Of a stretch of DNA of 64,000 nucleotides, positions 8,114 through 63,979 are shown piece by piece. Source of the DNA: a virus (taxonomy: Duplodnaviria > Caudoviricetes); IMG/VR virus record IMGVR_UViG_2786546475_000015, positions 101,978 through 165,977 of that record; one strand, given 5' to 3'. The notes beneath the pieces are model-generated. The model was not told the DNA's origin, searched no databases, and was given only the letters and a program-made list of their open reading frames with translations. The position numbers and the translations under genes are program-made. Numbering within the stretch: position 1 is the first letter of the stretch; every line of letters begins with the position of its first letter.

Positions 8114-8317
8114 ATGGACATTTTAATAACAATAATTTTAGTACTTGGTATCATCGCGGGTGGTATCGATTATCTAGACTGTAAAGACAAATATATAGTA
8201 GCTACTATTAGAGCGACTACCGTAGTTTTGATATTAACCTTTTTATTGATAGGTTTATATATCGAGGTACACGGTGCTTTACTATCTAGAATGGCATCCA
8301 TGATTGTCGTAAATTAA
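8114..8317 (+). CDS. small two-TM membrane protein, late expressed
   Basis: Two hydrophobic helices; TATAAATA at 8075-8082. Confidence 0.65.
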   Translation: MDILITIILVLGIIAGGIDYLDCKDKYIVATIRATTVVLILTFLLIGLYIEVHGALLSRMASMIVVN

Positions 8318-8347
8318 AGCTTTATAAATACCATTAGAGGTATTATT

Positions 8348-8857
8348 ATGAAGCAATTGATAACTAAAGAAGTTTTAAAACAGAAGGAAGATTTTTACGC
8401 CCTTCAAGGTGGTGAATGTGCTATATGCCAAAGACCGCTAGGGGAAGATTTTTCTAAAATCCACTTAGACCACGATCATGAATTGCATGGAGACAACGCG
8501 GGTAAATGTCGCGGGGCTTTATGTACATTTTGTAACCGATTAGAAGGCGATATAAAGAAAAAGTTCATCCATAGCGGATTAGAATCGCGTGGGGTAGAAC
8601 AGCTAGATTGGTTACGTTCCCTAATATCTTACCTAGAAACTGACTTATCAAAAAGAAACATTCACCCAAATCATGTAAACGATTATTCAAAATGGGTATG
8701 TAAACAAAATAAAGATGATATACTTAAAGAGTTTGAAAAGATAGGTTACAAACCAGATCCCAAACTAACTATAAAACAATTGAGTAAGCTATTCAAGAAA
8801 GAGTTTAGGAAATATCAAAAGCAAACGTATACAGATTATTATGAGGTAAACCAATGA
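8348..8857 (+). CDS. gp49: endonuclease VII (Holliday junction resolvase)
   Basis: CAIC...HLDHDHEL.G.NAGKCRGALCTFCN..EG; late promoter TATAAATA 8323-8330. Confidence 0.9.
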   Translation: MKQLITKEVLKQKEDFYALQGGECAICQRPLGEDFSKIHLDHDHELHGDNAGKCRGALCTFCNRLEGDIKKKFIHSGLESRGVEQLDWLRSLISYLETDLSKRNIHPNHVNDYSKWVCKQNKDDILKEFEKIGYKPDPKLTIKQLSKLFKKEFRKYQKQTYTDYYEVNQ

Positions 8858-56997: not shown

Positions 56998-57074
56998 GCG
57001 CCAATAGCTTAATCGGTAAAGCGCCCGTCTCATAAACGGTAGAAGGAGCGGATCGTAACCGCCTTGGCGCACCA
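56998..57074 (+). tRNA. tRNA CAU (Met or Ile2)
   Basis: GCGCCAA/TTGGCGC-A-CCA; loop CT CAT AA; atypical T-loop ATCGTAA. Confidence 0.85.
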
Positions 57075-57107
57075 TATTATCGGTGTTAAAACTAGATAGG
57101 AGAATGA

Positions 57108-57614
57108 ATGAATAGTAATACTACTCTTAACGAATATCTAAAAAATCTTTACTTGAGTTCAGATCCGAATATTCAAGAAATCGCTAATAATTTGTATGAA
57201 TTAGGTGCGACCACTCAAGATGAACTATCCGAATCGTCATATGACGACGAAGATATTGAGTGTGAGAAAGTTAATACCGCAGAAGATACCGTAAAAATCA
57301 TCGATTATTTACGTAATAACCCAAAATGGAATCATTCCAAGGTGAATGGTTATAAATACTGGTTAACGCTTAGTGGTTTTGATGAAAGTACACATTACGC
57401 CAATCAAAACGTATCTTTGGTTTGTGATAATCGGGGTTGGATGTTGATAGTTAATGCTGGTTTTAAGTATGATGGTAAAAATTGCGAGCATTATCATGGC
57501 GAAACTGGTGGAGAATATGATTTAGATGTTAAGAATATCATCCAAGCCAAACAAAAAGCGATTGAGATTTTGATCGAAGAATATGTAACTAAAAATATGT
57601 TATGTATGTGTTGA
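57108..57614 (+). CDS. hypothetical protein
   Basis: AGGAG RBS. Confidence 0.7.
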   Translation: MNSNTTLNEYLKNLYLSSDPNIQEIANNLYELGATTQDELSESSYDDEDIECEKVNTAEDTVKIIDYLRNNPKWNHSKVNGYKYWLTLSGFDESTHYANQNVSLVCDNRGWMLIVNAGFKYDGKNCEHYHGETGGEYDLDVKNIIQAKQKAIEILIEEYVTKNMLCMC

Positions 57615-57643
57615 ATATTATGCTTTAAAGTGAAAAATATATA

Positions 57644-58231
57644 ATGAAAATAATTAACCAACTTAGTGAATTATCACCACTTAGAAAATATTTCTTAGCC
57701 TATCAATTTTTTACTAAATCGACTAATATTTTTCTGATAGCTATAACTATTAGATTAATCACTGGTCAATTCGGCGAAGATGGGTTAATCTTAAAAGATT
57801 ATATGATTCCAGTATTGGGATTGTTTATATTCGTACCGTTTTTAAGTAATTACATCATTGATAACGCTAGAAAGTGTTTTAAGTGGATTATTGTTGTAGA
57901 AGTGTTTTCGTTATTGATGTATATTGCCGCTGAAAAGGGTATATTTCCAGAGATAACATTGATATTAGGTATAGTGACTTTAACGGTGTCTAATGTGTTC
58001 GTTAATCCACTTAGAGTAAAAAATAACTCACAAGTGGTTGACAACGACAAAAATTACTCTATACTTAGTGAACGTATCAATTCGGTGTTTACAGTCCTGT
58101 TATCATCTATCGGTGCATTGTTATTGATTTTTGATATACGGTCTGATGTTAATATCGTATTGACTATTATTTTTGTTCTTTTAAGTAGATTTACATATTT
58201 AAAAGTTCTTGATGAATTGAATGAGGAATAG
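57644..58231 (+). CDS. multi-pass membrane protein (~6 TM)
   Basis: Six hydrophobic segments. Confidence 0.75.
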   Translation: MKIINQLSELSPLRKYFLAYQFFTKSTNIFLIAITIRLITGQFGEDGLILKDYMIPVLGLFIFVPFLSNYIIDNARKCFKWIIVVEVFSLLMYIAAEKGIFPEITLILGIVTLTVSNVFVNPLRVKNNSQVVDNDKNYSILSERINSVFTVLLSSIGALLLIFDIRSDVNIVLTIIFVLLSRFTYLKVLDELNEE

Positions 58232-58433
58232 TATGAATATTTCATTAATTGAAAGATTTATTGTGATAAAATTTTTATTACTAATCGTCATGATTATCGG
58301 ATGGGGTATCAATATTTACCAAATCGTTAGCGATTTCACTACTTTTGCTGATATCGGTGCTGAAATGGTATTACGTATTGTTGGTATTGTACTTTTACCG
58401 TTGGGTGGATTCATGGGATTGTTTATTTGGTAA
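58221..58433 (+). CDS. small membrane protein
   Basis: Two TM segments; GWGINIYQIV...LRIVGIVLLPLGGFMG. Confidence 0.7.
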   Translation: MRNSMNISLIERFIVIKFLLLIVMIIGWGINIYQIVSDFTTFADIGAEMVLRIVGIVLLPLGGFMGLFIW

Positions 58434-58440
58434 AAAATAT

Positions 58441-58517
58441 GTCCTCGTAGCTCAAATGGATAGAGCAATCGCCTTCTAAGCGATTGGTTACAGGTTCGAG
58501 TCCTGTCGGGGATGCCA
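58441..58517 (+). tRNA. tRNA-Arg(UCU)
   Basis: ATCGC CT TCT AA GCGAT; GGTTCGAGTCC; CCA. Confidence 0.95.
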
Positions 58518-58523
58518 ATTTAT

Positions 58524-58612
58524 GGATAGTTGGTAGAGTGGTCAAATACACCCGATTGCTAATCGGGGGTCGCTAACGCGGCACAAGGGTTCGAATCCCT
58601 TACTATCCGCCA
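58524..58612 (+). tRNA. tRNA-Ser(GCU)
   Basis: CCCGA TT GCT AA TCGGG; long variable arm; CCA. Confidence 0.95.
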
Positions 58613-58624
58613 ATTTTTTATATT

Positions 58625-59035
58625 ATGAATGGAGTGAAAATGTTTATTTTCGAGTACGAAAATCGAAAAGGTAAAACTGTAAAAGTTGAATCGACTAAAC
58701 ATGCATACAAGCGATTCTGTCAACGATATAATAATTATTATGGAAAACGATTCGATAAAGAAGAATTGACGGAATCATTTGAAAAATTATTTGATAACGC
58801 TTTAAGAGAACCTAATGCTAGCGCTAACAAGCGTTTAACTAAACGTAAACGTAGAAAAGGTTCTGATACGATTTATTTTATCGATCGTTCTGGTGTTTTT
58901 CGTTTAGTCGTACAAGATGGTAAACTTATTACCGTAGAATTACGTGGTAAAAATCGTAAATTCAATAAAATAAAAAGAAAATGTGGGTATCATGGTGAAG
59001 CTCAAGATTTAGAAACAAAACCCACATTTAATTGA
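58625..59035 (+). CDS. hypothetical protein (possible BECR/RelE-like fold)
   Basis: STKHAYKRFCQRY...FRLVVQDGKLITV. Confidence 0.65.
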   Translation: MNGVKMFIFEYENRKGKTVKVESTKHAYKRFCQRYNNYYGKRFDKEELTESFEKLFDNALREPNASANKRLTKRKRRKGSDTIYFIDRSGVFRLVVQDGKLITVELRGKNRKFNKIKRKCGYHGEAQDLETKPTFN

Positions 59036-59051
59036 TACTAAATAATATTAT

Positions 59052-59126
59052 GGGGCGGTAGCTTAATTGGGAAAGCGCCTTACTTGCAATAAGGAAGATC
59101 GGGTTCGACTCCCGCCGACTCCACCA
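59052..59126 (+). tRNA. tRNA-Ala(UGC)
   Basis: CCTTA CT TGC AA TAAGG; G3-U70; CCA; imperfect acceptor stem. Confidence 0.9.
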
Positions 59127-59167
59127 AATTTTTGAGAAGATATTGATAAAGATATTTTGAAATATTT

Positions 59168-59243
59168 AGGGGTATGGTGTTAATGGCTAACATGACGGAT
59201 TCCAAATCCGTTGCTCGCGGTTCGAATCCGTGTACCCCTGCCA
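59168..59243 (+). tRNA. tRNA-Trp(CCA)
   Basis: ACGGA TT CCA AA TCCGT; AGGGGTA/TACCCCT; CCA. Confidence 0.95.
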
Positions 59244-59305
59244 AATTAATTTGTATTTTCTTATCTCGTATGGTAAACTATTACTATATCAGATAAGGAG
59301 ATTAA

Positions 59306-59485
59306 ATGAAGAAGATATTATCAAGAATTGCTTTAGCGTACAGTGTTCCATTTTATACAATCGTTTACATTTATCACAACGGATTAGTTGATGGATTTAT
59401 GTATTCTGTATCTACATGGTTGGTATCGCTACTGCTAGTAAGTTTAATGGTAGGTGGTTCATGTTCTCGGAACAATACAAGTTAG
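59306..59485 (+). CDS. small membrane protein (59 aa, not in ORF track)
   Basis: TAAGGAG RBS; MKKILSRIALAYSVPFYTIVY...; TTGTAT-17-TAAACT promoter upstream. Confidence 0.7.
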   Translation: MKKILSRIALAYSVPFYTIVYIYHNGLVDGFMYSVSTWLVSLLLVSLMVGGSCSRNNTS

Positions 59486-60261
59486 ATACACTGTTATCCG
59501 AAGCTCATAAAATAGAATTTTCGGATGAACAATGGGAAATTATGTTGTATTCCGAATCCGAAAATGAATTGATTAATCAGATCAATGAAGCGGATGTTTA
59601 TAACATGGTTACTTACGGTGCAGATGTTATTAAAGGCGTATTTAAGCGCTTAAAAACGGAAATTAAAGATATAGCACAAGAATTTCAAATTTCAGTAAAT
59701 GAAATTAAAATGGCTTTATCGTTTCCAGAAATTAAAGAAATGCTGAAAGCATTTGGATATAGTATAAAGGCTTTTGCTAAAACACTTTCTAAAAGTGTTG
59801 GTTTAGTCGGTACTATGTGTCATGATTTATTCGACGAATTAGAAAAATATGGATTTGCTGATGATCTTGATAAAGGTTTATCTGTATTAGATAATTGGTT
59901 CGATAATCATCCTCTAGCAAAGAAAGTTAGTGGATTTATGGTAGCGACTACGTTACTGTATATTTGGCTTTCTATGACGTTTACAGGGCGTTTTAGTAGC
60001 GATATGAACCTAAAGAACATCATCATGGCTTTAAGTGGTAAATATTCTTTAAGAGAAATATTCGCTACACCAGAAGGTAAATTGATGTTGGTACTATTCG
60101 GAACAGGTTCTTTTGTAACTTTTCCTTGGTTAGGTGCAACATACGGAAATCTTATGCTAGCCGTTGTGTATACTGGATTTATGATGATGAATCAAACAGG
60201 TATGGCATATAAAATTAAGAAAAAAATTAAGAAAAATGCTAAAATAGATATAAATCCTTGA
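59461..60261 (+). CDS. hypothetical protein with C-terminal TM segments
   Basis: Start MFSEQ after AGGTGG; hydrophobic C-terminal third. Confidence 0.7.
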   Translation: MFSEQYKLDTLLSEAHKIEFSDEQWEIMLYSESENELINQINEADVYNMVTYGADVIKGVFKRLKTEIKDIAQEFQISVNEIKMALSFPEIKEMLKAFGYSIKAFAKTLSKSVGLVGTMCHDLFDELEKYGFADDLDKGLSVLDNWFDNHPLAKKVSGFMVATTLLYIWLSMTFTGRFSSDMNLKNIIMALSGKYSLREIFATPEGKLMLVLFGTGSFVTFPWLGATYGNLMLAVVYTGFMMMNQTGMAYKIKKKIKKNAKIDINP

Positions 60262-60269
60262 TTTTGGTA

Positions 60270-60277
60270 TATAAATA
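60270..60277 (+). promoter_or_regulatory. late promoter upstream of leader/tRNA block
   Basis: TATAAATA exact. Confidence 0.6.
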
Positions 60278-60340
60278 AGAATACACATTTTTAAATTTAA
60301 GTCTGTCGTTGCTATAAGAACGACTTTTAAGAGAGATTTT

Positions 60341-60457
60341 ATGAAATTATTAACACTATCATATGAAAAACATAATATTCTACCGCAGGTGGACTCTTTT
60401 TCATACGTGCGTGGTAATTTCTTTAAAAATCTTAGATCGGGTATTGTACATATGTAA
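60341..60457 (+). CDS. putative 38-aa leader peptide
   Basis: GAGAG RBS-like; MKLLTLSYEKHNILPQVDSFSYVRGNFFKNLRSGIVHM*; followed by a terminator with an alternative fold. Confidence 0.6.
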   Translation: MKLLTLSYEKHNILPQVDSFSYVRGNFFKNLRSGIVHM

Positions 60458-60486
60458 TTGATACATAGTACTATTAACTTTTGTTA

Positions 60487-60513
60487 AGCCCGACTTTTAT
60501 AGTCGGGTTTTTT
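60487..60513 (+). terminator. intrinsic terminator (candidate attenuator)
   Basis: AGCCCGACT-TTTAT-AGTCGGGTT-TTTT, 14 nt before tRNA-Phe. Confidence 0.85.
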
Positions 60514-60527
60514 ATTGTCTAAATTCA

Positions 60528-60603
60528 GGGTAGTTAGCTTATATGGTAAAAGCGCGTGGTTGAAGCCCATGAGATAGGAGATCGTTACTTCTACTACCCA
60601 CCA
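60528..60603 (+). tRNA. tRNA-Phe(GAA)
   Basis: CGTGG TT GAA GC CCATG; GGGTAGT/ACTACCC-A-CCA; atypical T-loop ATCGTTA. Confidence 0.85.
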
Positions 60604-60605
60604 AG

Positions 60606-60682
60606 GGGCGAATAGCTTAGTTGGTTAAAGCGCCGATTTTACATGTCGGAGATCGTTGATTCGAATTCAACTTCGCCCACCA
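60606..60682 (+). tRNA. tRNA-Val(UAC)
   Basis: CCGAT TT TAC AT GTCGG; GGGCGAA/TTCGCCC-A-CCA. Confidence 0.92.
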
Positions 60683-60749
60683 AATTTTGCTTGTGGATGA
60701 CCACTGATTCAAGTTACCACATTAGCATCGGCGTTAGCCGAAATATAAA

Positions 60750-60826
60750 CGGGGTATAATGTCAATTGGTAGACGGCTCGCTTTGGAAGTGAGAGGTTGT
60801 AGATTCGAGTTCTACTACCCCGACCA
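60750..60826 (+). tRNA. tRNA-Pro(UGG)
   Basis: CTCGC TT TGG AA GTGAG; CGGGGTA/TACCCCG-A-CCA. Confidence 0.92.
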
Positions 60827-60830
60827 ATTC

Positions 60831-60906
60831 GGTCATATAGTTCAATTGGTAGAACAGCGGATTCATGATCTGCATGTTGTAGGTTCAAGTCCTACTATGA
60901 CCACCA
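60831..60906 (+). tRNA. tRNA CAU (Met or Ile2)
   Basis: GCGGA TT CAT GA TCTGC; GGTCATA/TATGACC-A-CCA. Confidence 0.9.
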
Positions 60907-60966
60907 AATTTTTTATTGACAGACCTATTTGAGTATGAAATAATGACCTTAAATTAAGGAGTCATT

Positions 60967-61155
60967 ATGAATTACAGAAAATGGATAGGTAAGAAAGTTA
61001 GAAAGTGTTCTAATAAACCTTTTAAATCTGGCGAAAAGATTAACACTGTAAAGGGCTTGTTCTTTAATAATAATTCTGGTAAAATGGGATTTTTATTTGA
61101 AGAAGATGATTCTGTTGTTGATTGTTTTATTTGTAGGTTGAATGATGTTGAATAA
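60967..61155 (+). CDS. hypothetical protein
   Basis: TAAGGAG RBS; TTGACA-17-AATAAT promoter upstream. Confidence 0.75.
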   Translation: MNYRKWIGKKVRKCSNKPFKSGEKINTVKGLFFNNNSGKMGFLFEEDDSVVDCFICRLNDVE

Positions 61156-61537
61156 TGATATACCTATAAGAAATCAATTTAAAAAAGTTATTCGGGAAAT
61201 CACTAATTCTACTGAATATATTAAATTGGTTTTACGTTTTGGTTACCATGTTGAAGATCGTATTAGAGAACGTCTTTGTACACCTAGAGAATATGTTAAA
61301 ATATTAAACTTCTTTAGGTATGCTGTTAGTAGAAACTATATGGAATTTCGTTTAGCTCAATCGCGTGGCTACGAAGAAATTATTATCGAATTGAATGATT
61401 ATTATAGATTCGTGATCATACCTAGTTACGGTAAAACGAATGATTATTCGATAAGAACATTTTATGTATGTAGGACTAAACCTACATATAATAAGAAAAA
61501 CACAAAATATTTTAAATTTTATGATAAAAGTGTTTAA
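61142..61537 (+). CDS. hypothetical protein
   Basis: FGYHVEDRIRERL motif. Confidence 0.65.
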   Translation: MMLNNDIPIRNQFKKVIREITNSTEYIKLVLRFGYHVEDRIRERLCTPREYVKILNFFRYAVSRNYMEFRLAQSRGYEEIIIELNDYYRFVIIPSYGKTNDYSIRTFYVCRTKPTYNKKNTKYFKFYDKSV

Positions 61538-61587
61538 AATTGAAATTAAATGTGTATAATAGGTCTTGTTGATTGAGGAAATCAACG

Positions 61588-61692
61588 CAACATAATGAAG
61601 CGTGAAATAAATGCTATCTCACGCGCTTATTTCGGACTTTTGATCCGTAGGGCGAGGATTGTAGGATAAAGCTACCTACCATTATGTATCAG
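61588..61692 (+). ncRNA. putative ~105 nt multibranch structured RNA
   Basis: Closing stem ACATAATG/CATTATGT enclosing three hairpins; TGTGTATAAT promoter element just upstream. Confidence 0.45.
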
Positions 61693-61693
61693 T

Positions 61694-61770
61694 TGCGGGG
61701 TAGAGCAGTTTGGTAGCTCACTTGGCTCATAACCAAGAGGTCGCTGGTTCGAATCCAGCCCCCGCTACCA
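61694..61770 (+). tRNA. initiator-type tRNA-fMet(CAU)
   Basis: TGCGGGGTAGAGCAG...CCCCGCT-A-CCA with 1:72 mismatch; CTTGG CT CAT AA CCAAG. Confidence 0.9.
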
Positions 61771-61786
61771 ATTTAGTGTATTTTGG

Positions 61787-61863
61787 GGTAGTAGTAGTTT
61801 AATTGGCAAAACCCCAAGATGTGACCTTGGAAGATGCGAGATCGTTGCTCGTCTACTACCCCA
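61787..61863 (+). tRNA. tRNA-His(GUG)
   Basis: CCAAG AT GTG AC CTTGG; G-1:C73; atypical T-loop ATCGTTG. Confidence 0.88.
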
Positions 61864-61891
61864 AAATACATTAAAATAATTTGAAAAAGTT

Positions 61892-61920
61892 GTTTACATA
61901 CATAAAATAATGTGTATAAT
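61892..61920 (+). promoter_or_regulatory. T4-type early promoter
   Basis: A-tract, GTTTAC-17-TATAAT with TGTG extended -10. Confidence 0.75.
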
Positions 61921-61929
61921 TAACAATAT

Positions 61930-62007
61930 ACTCGGTTGGCAGAAGTCAGGTTATCTCGCCACCCTTTCAAGGTGGAGTCACGGGTTCGAATCCCGTACCG
62001 AGTACCA
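61930..62007 (+). tRNA. tRNA-Glu(UUC)
   Basis: CCACC CT TTC AA GGTGG; ACTCGGT/ACCGAGT-A-CCA. Confidence 0.93.
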
Positions 62008-62029
62008 GATTAATATACGCTATAACGTA

Positions 62030-62945
62030 TAAACTGAAAATATACGCTTTAGAGTATAACAGAATTTACCCACCTAAATGATCGTTTATGGTGTAAAGTA
62101 AAACACGTTCTTGTTTACGGGTAATGCGATATGGGCGCGATAAGCACTGGTAACGGTGTGAAAGGGTAAGACTCCAACATCTTATCTGCTATGAAAATAG
62201 TCATCCCATGAAAGCCGAGAGTTCTATAAGATATCAAGACCGTAGGAAACTTGGTATTCGGCTAGGACGGTAAGGTAGGAAATAAGTCGGTATGGGTAAC
62301 TCCGAATATTGGCTTCGCGCTCGCAAAGCGATTACTACACGCAAACTTACCTACTAGGTAGACTCAAAGGGTATGGTATTTGGTCAGAGTCTTAGCGGAT
62401 AAAGGCGATTTACCTGTTCAATTGGTTGTGTACGTTCGGCGGCGAAAGTCGCTATGCAAGCATGGTCGAGAAGAACCGTAGAAAAGTAACCTTAGCGGGT
62501 GAAACTACATTAGGATGTAATGTATTGGGTAGGTCAAAAGCTTATCTAGCGTTTTCGGGGCGCACATCCTTGTTGGTTATATATATATTTCGGTCACAAA
62601 AACCGAACTTGCATATTGGGCAATGTTTATACAAAAAACGTAAAGACGCTCCGAGGTTAAAAACGAAAGCGGTTTAATACCATAGCGAAAGCAATATGGT
62701 TTGTGGATAGCTCACAAAGTTTGAAACAATTTATCGGGATACTGCATGGTGAGTTTAGCGACTCTTTAGTGCTCGCAAGGCATACAGAATGTTGAAGGTA
62801 GAGTAGTTTTTAATCTAACCGTAAATGCTAACGGGATATAAAATAGCAACCGTGACAAGATACGTGGTAGCCACGTGGATAAGGTGAGAATAACATAATG
62901 CACTTAAAGACTTGTCGAATTTAGCTGTAATCTCAAGCTAATGTC
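62030..62945 (+). ncRNA. large (~900 nt) structured RNA, GOLLD-like
   Basis: Stretch without a credible CDS, GC-richer than flanks, in a tRNA cluster; many GNRA-capped hairpins and a terminal TTAGCT-GTAATCTCA-AGCTAA hairpin. Family assignment is from recall and context only. Confidence 0.7.
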
Positions 62946-62981
62946 ATTCTAATATTCTTTTAAAAGCGAGAGCATATTATA

Positions 62982-63254
62982 ATGACAGATGAAATTATTG
63001 TATTTGATGTTAATGGTGAAATTCTTCATAATGAAGAAGCTGGAAAATTAACAAAAAACAAAATATTATCAAAATGTTTTGAATACGAAAAATTATTAGA
63101 AAATAAACCAATGGTAGCTTTTACATCAAATGACTATATGGTAGTATTTGGTGATAAATCTAAAAAGATACCAGAAAAGAATAGAATTCTTGAAATGACT
63201 GATAAAGATCGACAATGGTTTTTGAAGTTGTTAGATAATCAGGATGTTCGGTGA
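62982..63254 (+). CDS. hypothetical protein
   Basis: 90 aa ORF whose 3' end overlaps tRNA-Tyr by 13 nt. Confidence 0.6.
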   Translation: MTDEIIVFDVNGEILHNEEAGKLTKNKILSKCFEYEKLLENKPMVAFTSNDYMVVFGDKSKKIPEKNRILEMTDKDRQWFLKLLDNQDVR

Positions 63255-63330
63255 AGTTGGAGAGTCACAGTGGGCTGTAACCCCATGTACCCAAAAGGTA
63301 CAATAGGTTCGAATCCTATAACATCCACCA
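63242..63330 (+). tRNA. tRNA-Tyr(GUA)
   Basis: GTGGG CT GTA AC CCCAT; long variable arm; GGATGTT/AACATCC-A-CCA. Confidence 0.93.
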
Positions 63331-63336
63331 AATTCA

Positions 63337-63412
63337 GGGGCGTTGGCGTAGTCAGGTCGCGCATGGGGCTTTTAACCCTAGGACACAGGTTCGAATCCTG
63401 TACGCCCCACCA
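63337..63412 (+). tRNA. tRNA-Lys(UUU)
   Basis: TGGGG CT TTT AA CCCTA; GGGGCGT/ACGCCCC-A-CCA. Confidence 0.92.
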
Positions 63413-63414
63413 AA

Positions 63415-63600
63415 TTTTAGGTTGTGAAAATATTAGTTGAAAACGGTAAAGAGAATCGTCACTTGCGTTTAGGACGTAATGTGTTTGGAGAGAACGATTT
63501 CCCACCTAAAACGTGCTTGTGTAAGTAAGTCAATCGCTATATAAATTTTACGACAGATGTGGTAAAGCGGTGTAACGGGTTCGATTCCCGACTACATAAT
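63415..63600 (+). ncRNA. putative structured RNA with tRNA-like 3' module
   Basis: ATGTGGT...CGGG-TTCGATT-CCCG-ACTACAT acceptor+T-arm mimic lacking D and anticodon arms. Confidence 0.4.
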
Positions 63601-63614
63601 TAATTGAGGTAAAA

Positions 63615-63824
63615 ATGCCTACATACTTGTACAAATGTCCGAATAAAGATTGTTCGGAACATGATATTGAAAAAACATATCGAAAGAAAATGAGCGAACC
63701 AGATCCTTTTTGTGGTCAGTGTATTTATACAAAAATGGTTCAAGTATTTAAGAAAGCAACAAATTTTAGTTTAAAAGGTAGTGATTGGACAGGTTCAAAC
63801 ATTACTGGAAAAATTAAACGATAG
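63615..63824 (+). CDS. FmdB-family zinc-ribbon protein
   Basis: MPTYLYKCPNKDC...CGQC...V......F.LKGSDW. Confidence 0.85.
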   Translation: MPTYLYKCPNKDCSEHDIEKTYRKKMSEPDPFCGQCIYTKMVQVFKKATNFSLKGSDWTGSNITGKIKR

Positions 63825-63898
63825 TGGTGTAGTTCAGTTGGTAGAACAGTAGACCGATAATCTACGTGTCACAGGTTCGAGTCCTGTCACCACTACCA
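63823..63898 (+). tRNA. tRNA-Ile(GAU)
   Basis: GTAGA CC GAT AA TCTAC; AGTGGTG/CACCACT-A-CCA. Confidence 0.92.
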
Positions 63899-63904
63899 AA
63901 TTTT

Positions 63905-63979
63905 GGGGGATTAGCTCAGTGGTAGAGCAATCGGCTGTTAACCGATAGGTCGTTGGTTCGAATCCAACATCCCCCGCCA
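63905..63979 (+). tRNA. tRNA-Asn(GUU)
   Basis: ATCGG CT GTT AA CCGAT; GGGGGAT/ATCCCCC-G-CCA. Confidence 0.95.

Follow-up and report, generated by a model that had tools for sequence, protein, structure and literature searches.

The stretch of DNA analysed here, which we call the window, forms the final 64 kb of a virus record of 165,977 bp that carries direct terminal repeats and is judged 100% complete in IMG/VR. The phage's major head, portal, sheath, large terminase and baseplate wedge proteins are of T4 type, so that the T4-like assignment of the original prediction, made from the sequence alone, stands. Its capsid is 59% and its portal about 50% identical to those of the nearest T4-like phages in culture, whose hosts are Klebsiella, Aeromonas and Vibrio; this makes the virus a distant, uncultured T4-like myovirus. 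Searches of IMG/VR with its capsid protein and with the downstream 90-aa ORF returned no close relatives, in a collection that may lack near-identical records. The sequencing runs that contain at least half of the sampled words of the stretch are all labelled marine metagenome, and one run at 0.45 is estuarine.

Sixteen tRNA genes lie in the window (56998-63979) and eight more at the start of the record (L121 77-3547), forming an island of at least 24. The island crosses the ends of the terminally repeated record; all its tRNAs are on the + strand, with small family-less ORFs interspersed. At 61788-61863 ARAGORN calls a tRNA-His (GTG) whose G-1 is encoded. Its T loop is ATCGTTG, where TTCRAnY is usual, and the tRNA model of Rfam leaves the call unreported even at E = 1. 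After tRNA-Lys comes a 200-nt ORF-free spacer (63413-63614) that ends in a tRNA-like minihelix (core 63557-63597). Its acceptor-like stem, ATGTGGT/ACTACAT, has 7 bp and its T arm, CGGG-TTCGATT-CCCG, is canonical, but it has neither D arm nor anticodon arm. ARAGORN makes no call at this place, and all that Rfam offers is the 3' end of tmRNA, matched at 13.6 bits. The element could be what is left of a tRNA, or a small mimic of one. In a related strain, found in an estuarine DNA run (X7), 63335-63609 is missing, with 24 other nucleotides in place.

The feature of interest follows tRNA-Glu (UUC; 61930-62007, + strand), recognised by both ARAGORN and the Rfam tRNA model. From the end of this gene, 974 nt (62008-62981) go by before an ATG ORF with a credible start comes up (62982-63254), in line with the roughly 970 nt up to the next credible CDS that had been noticed at the outset. 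This gap is also GC-richer than its flanks, again as had been stated: G+C is 0.43-0.475 across 62100-62500 versus 0.25-0.33 in the flanking ORFs. One might ask whether the region is after all protein-coding, or else a self-splicing intron, a ROOL RNA or some other known RNA. The longest ORF of the gap, 83 aa from a TTG start (62426-62677), speaks for coding, but it has no Pfam match. Furthermore, strain variants carry indels of 1 nt and 4 nt at 62245, 62482, 62578, 62633 and 62839, which would be incompatible with any conserved reading frame, and those at 62482, 62578 and 62633 break the frame of that very ORF. As for the other RNAs, no intron (group I or II), ROOL or ribozyme model of Rfam matches between 56000 and 64000 at any E-value up to 1. 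We see next to no chance for this family of explanations. What we have is a non-coding region of a T4-like phage, surrounded by tRNA genes, which is a typical setting of GOLLD RNA in phages and prophages, a family reportedly due to Weinberg et al. in 2009.

Indeed, when all 4,227 Rfam families were searched with cmscan, a single strong match apart from tRNAs came out, and it was GOLLD (RF02032). It lies on the + strand at 62512-62939, covers the model over its full length (1-416 of 416) and scores 186.8 bits (E 6.6e-52), above the gathering score of 150 bits. The same match was obtained with the whole window and with the whole virus record, which holds one GOLLD copy only. The alignment displays the hallmarks of the family: a long first hairpin with a UCAAAAG loop, an ACGAAAG...UAAU junction, a GAGUAGU junction, a GUGGAUAA junction and a terminal hairpin with a GUAAUCUCA loop. 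The match does not rest on low-complexity sequence, as conserved loops and helices are matched. The conserved GUGGAUAA junction and the invariant GUAAUCUCA loop are both found within 62873-62941, and the terminal hairpin itself, UUAGCU-GUAAUCUCA-AGCUAA (62921-62941, + strand, cmscan), marks the 3' end of GOLLD; by its position, its loop would be L27.

Two further hairpins of the + strand may be important for the way the molecule associates with itself. The first, GAGU-UUAGCG-ACUC (62751-62764), is common to the relatives in our alignments. The second (62769-62783), seen both by cmscan and in the alignments of relatives, carries a conserved CGCAA loop. They are adjacent, and stand in the same order in the window and in its relatives. 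We infer that they are the equivalents of P21a/L21a, with its self-pairing GC kissing loop, and of P21b/L21b in the GOLLD RNA env-38, a mapping made by env-38 numbering only (L21a at nt 656-657, 3' region from nt 421). By analogy, the UUAGCG and CGCAA loops would probably make symmetric kissing contacts between two half-shells. In this P21 region (model positions around 233-266) the cmscan alignment has a 23-nt insertion and an 18-nt deletion, which we took for a register error, the relatives showing both hairpins.

GOLLD RNAs are made up of a 3' region that is conserved in all of them and a 5' region that is conserved less (PMC12286853). Rfam models the former only, and the 5' half lies outside RF02032. 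We therefore used the pattern GTGGATAA..AAAG..GTAATCTCA to retrieve 119 IMG/VR loci that bear GOLLD, and cut out the upstream sequence of each. An iterated nhmmer search seeded with the 5' half from the window gathered 33 other GOLLD 5'-domain sequences. The profile of these 33 sequences, with the window excluded, matches the 64-kb window once, both strands being searched, at 62196-62430 (E 6.3e-20). Together with the MAFFT alignment and the consensus structure that we now describe, this delineates a structured 5' domain at 62115-62511 (+ strand), homologous to that of other GOLLDs.

Positions 62105-62590 were aligned with MAFFT to the 5' domains of 20 relatives, and RNAalifold folded this alignment into a consensus of 107 pairs in 22 helices. 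Compensatory changes occur in 81 of the 107 pairs, and none of 500 shuffles reaches the observed values. Over the 107 pairs, 94.7% of the cells are paired; sliding the 3' partners by 1-3 columns lowers this share to 37-42%, and the covariation score from 0.583 to about 0.09. The window itself forms 72 of 103 consensus pairs (32-42 when slid), and at 24 pairs both of its bases depart from the commonest pair without loss of pairing. For example, the domain is closed by a long-range helix, 62174-62178/62572-62576, that reads CCAAC/GUUGG where the consensus has CCUAC/GUAGG; a second long-range helix joins 62214-62221 to 62363-62372 (both + strand). No members of the subfamily diverge more than the window and locus L030, with 72 and 78 pairs out of 103 where most others keep at least 100; part of the pairs that the two break is misalignment by MAFFT. 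The window also reads GUCG-GUAU-GGGU where it is aligned to a conserved GUCC-GAAA-GGAU hairpin, a GUAU-type loop that sets it apart from its subfamily. The folding energy of the whole 884-nt RNA (MFE z-score of -1.84) is uninformative at such a size.

This structure allows us to sort the seven hairpins which had been listed from the sequence. All are there, but only four to five of them are conserved GOLLD helices. The GAAA hairpin at 62188-62201, the ACCATA...TATGGT helix at 62678, ACGTGG/CCACGT at 62862 and the terminal hairpin at 62921-62941 are supported by the Rfam model or by the 5'-domain consensus. GGCGGC-GAAA-GTCGCT (62438) is a real hairpin, but within a variable insertion; a cluster of strain variants from DNA run X2 falls at 62436-62456, with substitutions that do not pair in the same register. 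TTCGGT/ACCGAA (62589) belongs to a variable linker. Finally, TACATTA/TAATGTA (62506) is not a conserved pairing, its bases being part of the long hairpin 62511-62570.

Since the 3' half matches RF02032 and the 5' half is homologous to other GOLLDs in profile and in structure, both halves are GOLLD. We thus read the + strand from about 62115/62130 to 62941/62945 with a probability of about 0.93 as the gene of a two-domain GOLLD RNA that lies in the tRNA island of this uncultured marine phage, T4-like and 166 kb long. The original prediction had left a choice between a GOLLD family member and a new giant RNA class, and it is the first branch that holds. A new class merely resembling GOLLD might have drawn on the lack of blastn similarity of the whole gap to any GenBank phage, and on the first 180 nt or so after the tRNA (62008-62190), for which neither single-sequence blastn nor nhmmer with the 5' half found homology. 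Yet covariance-model and profile searches tie both halves to GOLLD, and what is unique to the window comes down to 120 nt of spacer and leader, a part that varies between strains. We give this alternative a vanishingly small weight.

Where the RNA begins can be approached by comparison with relatives. Their 5' domain starts with a short hairpin (consensus UGGCGG-UAUA-GCGUC), followed by a AUUAGGGUAA junction, a GNRA-capped hairpin and then CAAAGCAGG. The equivalents in the window are a GUAA-capped hairpin of the GNRA type at 62145-62158 and the GAAA hairpin at 62188-62201, both on the + strand, with a weak first hairpin at about 62117-62129 upstream of the former. By this manual comparison with the alignment of upstream regions, conservation starts at about 62115-62130. 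The X7 strain supports this independently: there 62060-62125 is swapped for 96 unrelated nucleotides and similarity resumes exactly at 62126. The conserved RNA therefore extends from about 62115-62130 to 62941-62945, that is, some 815-830 nt, preceded by a strain-variable leader of about 65 nt. The length of about 900 nt first proposed was somewhat generous for the conserved core, a leader being nevertheless to be added to it.

This leader (62062-62125, + strand) is part of the contig found in RNA libraries, as discussed below. The spacer between it and tRNA-Glu (62008-62061, + strand) is outside that abundant contig; it contains AATATACGCT twice, at 62012-62021 and 62039-62048, and this repetition may reflect a processing or regulatory site. 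The first copy sits within a small palindrome, TATACG-CTATAA-CGTATA. In the leader, the 10-mer CCCACCTAAA (62069-62078) recurs exactly at 63501-63510, in the spacer after tRNA-Lys, with loosely similar flanks. As a shared motif it was not retained: 4 matches were counted versus 2.5 expected, and 7 of 500 shuffles reached the extended alignment, which is not significant.

Between the two domains runs an A/U-rich variable linker (62577-62650, + strand) with the one small hairpin TTCGGT/ACCGAA, in which neither ARAGORN nor Rfam finds a tRNA. By contrast, the relatives of the subfamily usually have a complete linker tRNA, placed at -400 to -327 from the 3' end. Among the 119 fetched loci, 20 have an ARAGORN call for a tRNA or tRNA-like element between -410 and -322 from the 3' end, and Rfam confirms those of L075, L030 and L022. 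Linkers devoid of tRNA are also found in L003-type GOLLDs and in env-38. Many subfamily relatives have, in addition, a promoter of their own, TTGACA-17-TATAAT, some 20-70 nt upstream of the 5' domain, again unlike the window. These two features were noted over the subfamily loci L015, L018, L021, L022, L024, L030, L045, L069, L074, L075, L077, L083, L085, L091, L099 and L109. The anticodons of the linker tRNAs are varied, with calls that include SeC, Pyl or undetermined types.

How, then, is GOLLD expressed in this phage? Scanning, followed by inspection by eye, revealed no convincing sigma-70 or T4 late (TATAAATA) promoter before 62062. Upstream of tRNA-Glu, the announced promoter-like TTTACA-16-TATAAT is present on the + strand at 61893-61920; this sigma-70-like site agrees with the consensus at 11 of 12 positions and ranks second among such matches over the 3.2 kb scanned. 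Judged by that match to the consensus, it could possibly drive a precursor holding both tRNA-Glu and GOLLD. GOLLD would be transcribed early, with tRNA-Glu or just after it, and its context suggests that it would outlive the flanking RNA. It may accumulate during infection as a stable RNA, either through processing of a tRNA-Glu precursor or from an unrecognised promoter.

Environmental RNA offers a glimpse of this behaviour. In X3 and X4, RNA-seq runs of a single marine metatranscriptome sample, contigs of 750 and 763 nt are 100% identical to 62064-62811 and 62064-62824, respectively; the contigs of these runs leave 62825-62979 uncovered. The GOLLD contig has a word depth of 80-83 there versus 4-10 for the other phage contigs of the locus, about tenfold, depth in assembled contigs being a crude measure of expression, in which strand and ends are invisible and to which DNA present in RNA libraries can contribute. 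In DNA run X2, from another study, a contig spanning 61898-63258 has a depth of 7.6, and this and the other phage contigs of the locus are flat at 5.5-8.5. The tenfold depth fits a stable, abundant RNA, and is a hint of it only. The proposal that 3' processing of tRNA-Glu generates the 5' end of the RNA finds neither support nor refutation in these data: the RNA contig starts at about 62062-62064, 55 nt past the tRNA, contig ends not being RNA ends, and no contig of the RNA runs bridges tRNA-Glu and GOLLD.

These observations also bear on whether the locus might be a decaying relic, recognisable by its sequence yet no longer giving a working RNA. The consensus pairs that the window breaks (it keeps 72 of 103), more than in most relatives, the alteration of one conserved GAAA-type loop and the linker without tRNA would fit such decay. 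However, the last feature is shared with the L003-type GOLLDs and env-38, the Rfam match is full-length and above the gathering score, and the 24 pairs changed on both sides that still pair indicate continuing selection for pairing. Moreover, in four other DNA studies, marine or estuarine, strains retain the element at about 97-98% identity, and the deepest phage contig of the locus in the RNA library is precisely that of GOLLD. We find a relic very improbable, and return to a complete GOLLD.

The carriers of its subfamily (IMG/VR L075, L024, L015, L030, L022 and others) have 5' domains that can be aligned helix for helix with that of the window, and they share with it the pair of UUAGCG and CGCAA hairpins. 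L075 and L035, of the same 5'-domain subfamily, also reside in phages with a gp23-type capsid, which is nothing unusual for a GOLLD carrier in metagenomes: 14 of 49 GOLLD-bearing IMG/VR records searched have such a capsid. Cultured carriers are the phiCbK-like Caulobacter phages and the roseophages DSS3P8 and MD18. Matches to the 5'-domain, P14 and linker-tRNA region of L075 are located at 102683-102802 of NC_019405 (phiCbK) and at 8295-8522 of KT870145 (DSS3P8). In the GenBank records of phiCbK-like phages and roseophages either the embedded tRNA alone or nothing is annotated at that place, and GOLLD goes unannotated.

As in known GOLLDs, the RNA of the window has a GUAAUCUCA terminal loop and an internal variable linker. 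It resembles env-38 in size, both exceeding 800 nt (about 815-830 versus 833 nt), and in its place, directly 3' of a tRNA within a phage tRNA island (tRNA-Met for env-38, tRNA-Glu here). It departs from known GOLLDs by an identity of at most about 60-64% to any of those fetched, by its strain-variable leader of about 65 nt and by its carrier, a T4-like seawater myovirus. ROOL, the octameric RNA-only cage, is likewise a large phage-borne RNA near tRNA islands, but it is unrelated to the window in sequence and fold.

The structure of env-38 was established by cryo-EM as a 14-mer cage (Kretsch et al. 2025, PMC12286853). This cage has D7 symmetry and measures about 380 Å across; the 5' domains make its two caps, the 3' regions its rings, and the linker points inward (PMC12286853). 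Cage formation has been demonstrated for env-38 only, in vitro (PMC12286853). By analogy, it seems rather likely that the GOLLD of the window also self-assembles into a 14-mer D7 cage made of RNA only, in which its 5' domains would be the caps, its 3' domains the rings, and the linker of 75 nt would be directed inward. Encapsulation of the linker tRNA, ribosome binding (from a pull-down) and an expression that rises at lysis have been proposed or reported for GOLLD (PMC12286853). The constant link with tRNA islands, the linker tRNAs of the relatives and the reported ribosome pull-down lead us to a guess, possible but on the doubtful side, that the role of GOLLD is tied to phage translation or to a take-over of tRNAs. 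A more daring scenario, which we consider distinctly unlikely, would have the GOLLD of this T4-like lineage lose its private promoter and its linker tRNA, and become the 3' part of a tRNA-Glu precursor from which tRNA-processing enzymes would free it.

With reference to what was already published, namely the family, its context of phages and tRNA islands and the structure of the cage, the locus adds no new class. It puts on record a GOLLD that is both divergent and complete, in the genome of a marine T4-like phage that is itself judged complete. Modestly new are the structure of the 5' domain of a subfamily, the environmental RNA signal and, in a T4-like marine phage, a configuration without linker tRNA or private promoter. 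The gain is an alignment and structure of the 5' domain that can be used for a subfamily lying outside Rfam, a record of natural strain variation and a hint of high RNA abundance at sea. Phage annotations miss GOLLD, as the GenBank records of the phiCbK-like phages and roseophages illustrate, and yet it belongs to the handful of natural RNAs for which cages free of protein are known. Were the reading as a tRNA-Glu precursor true, GOLLD would be among the most abundant phage RNAs in natural infections in seawater, and abundant marine T4-like phages would provide a direct handle on the function of its cage.
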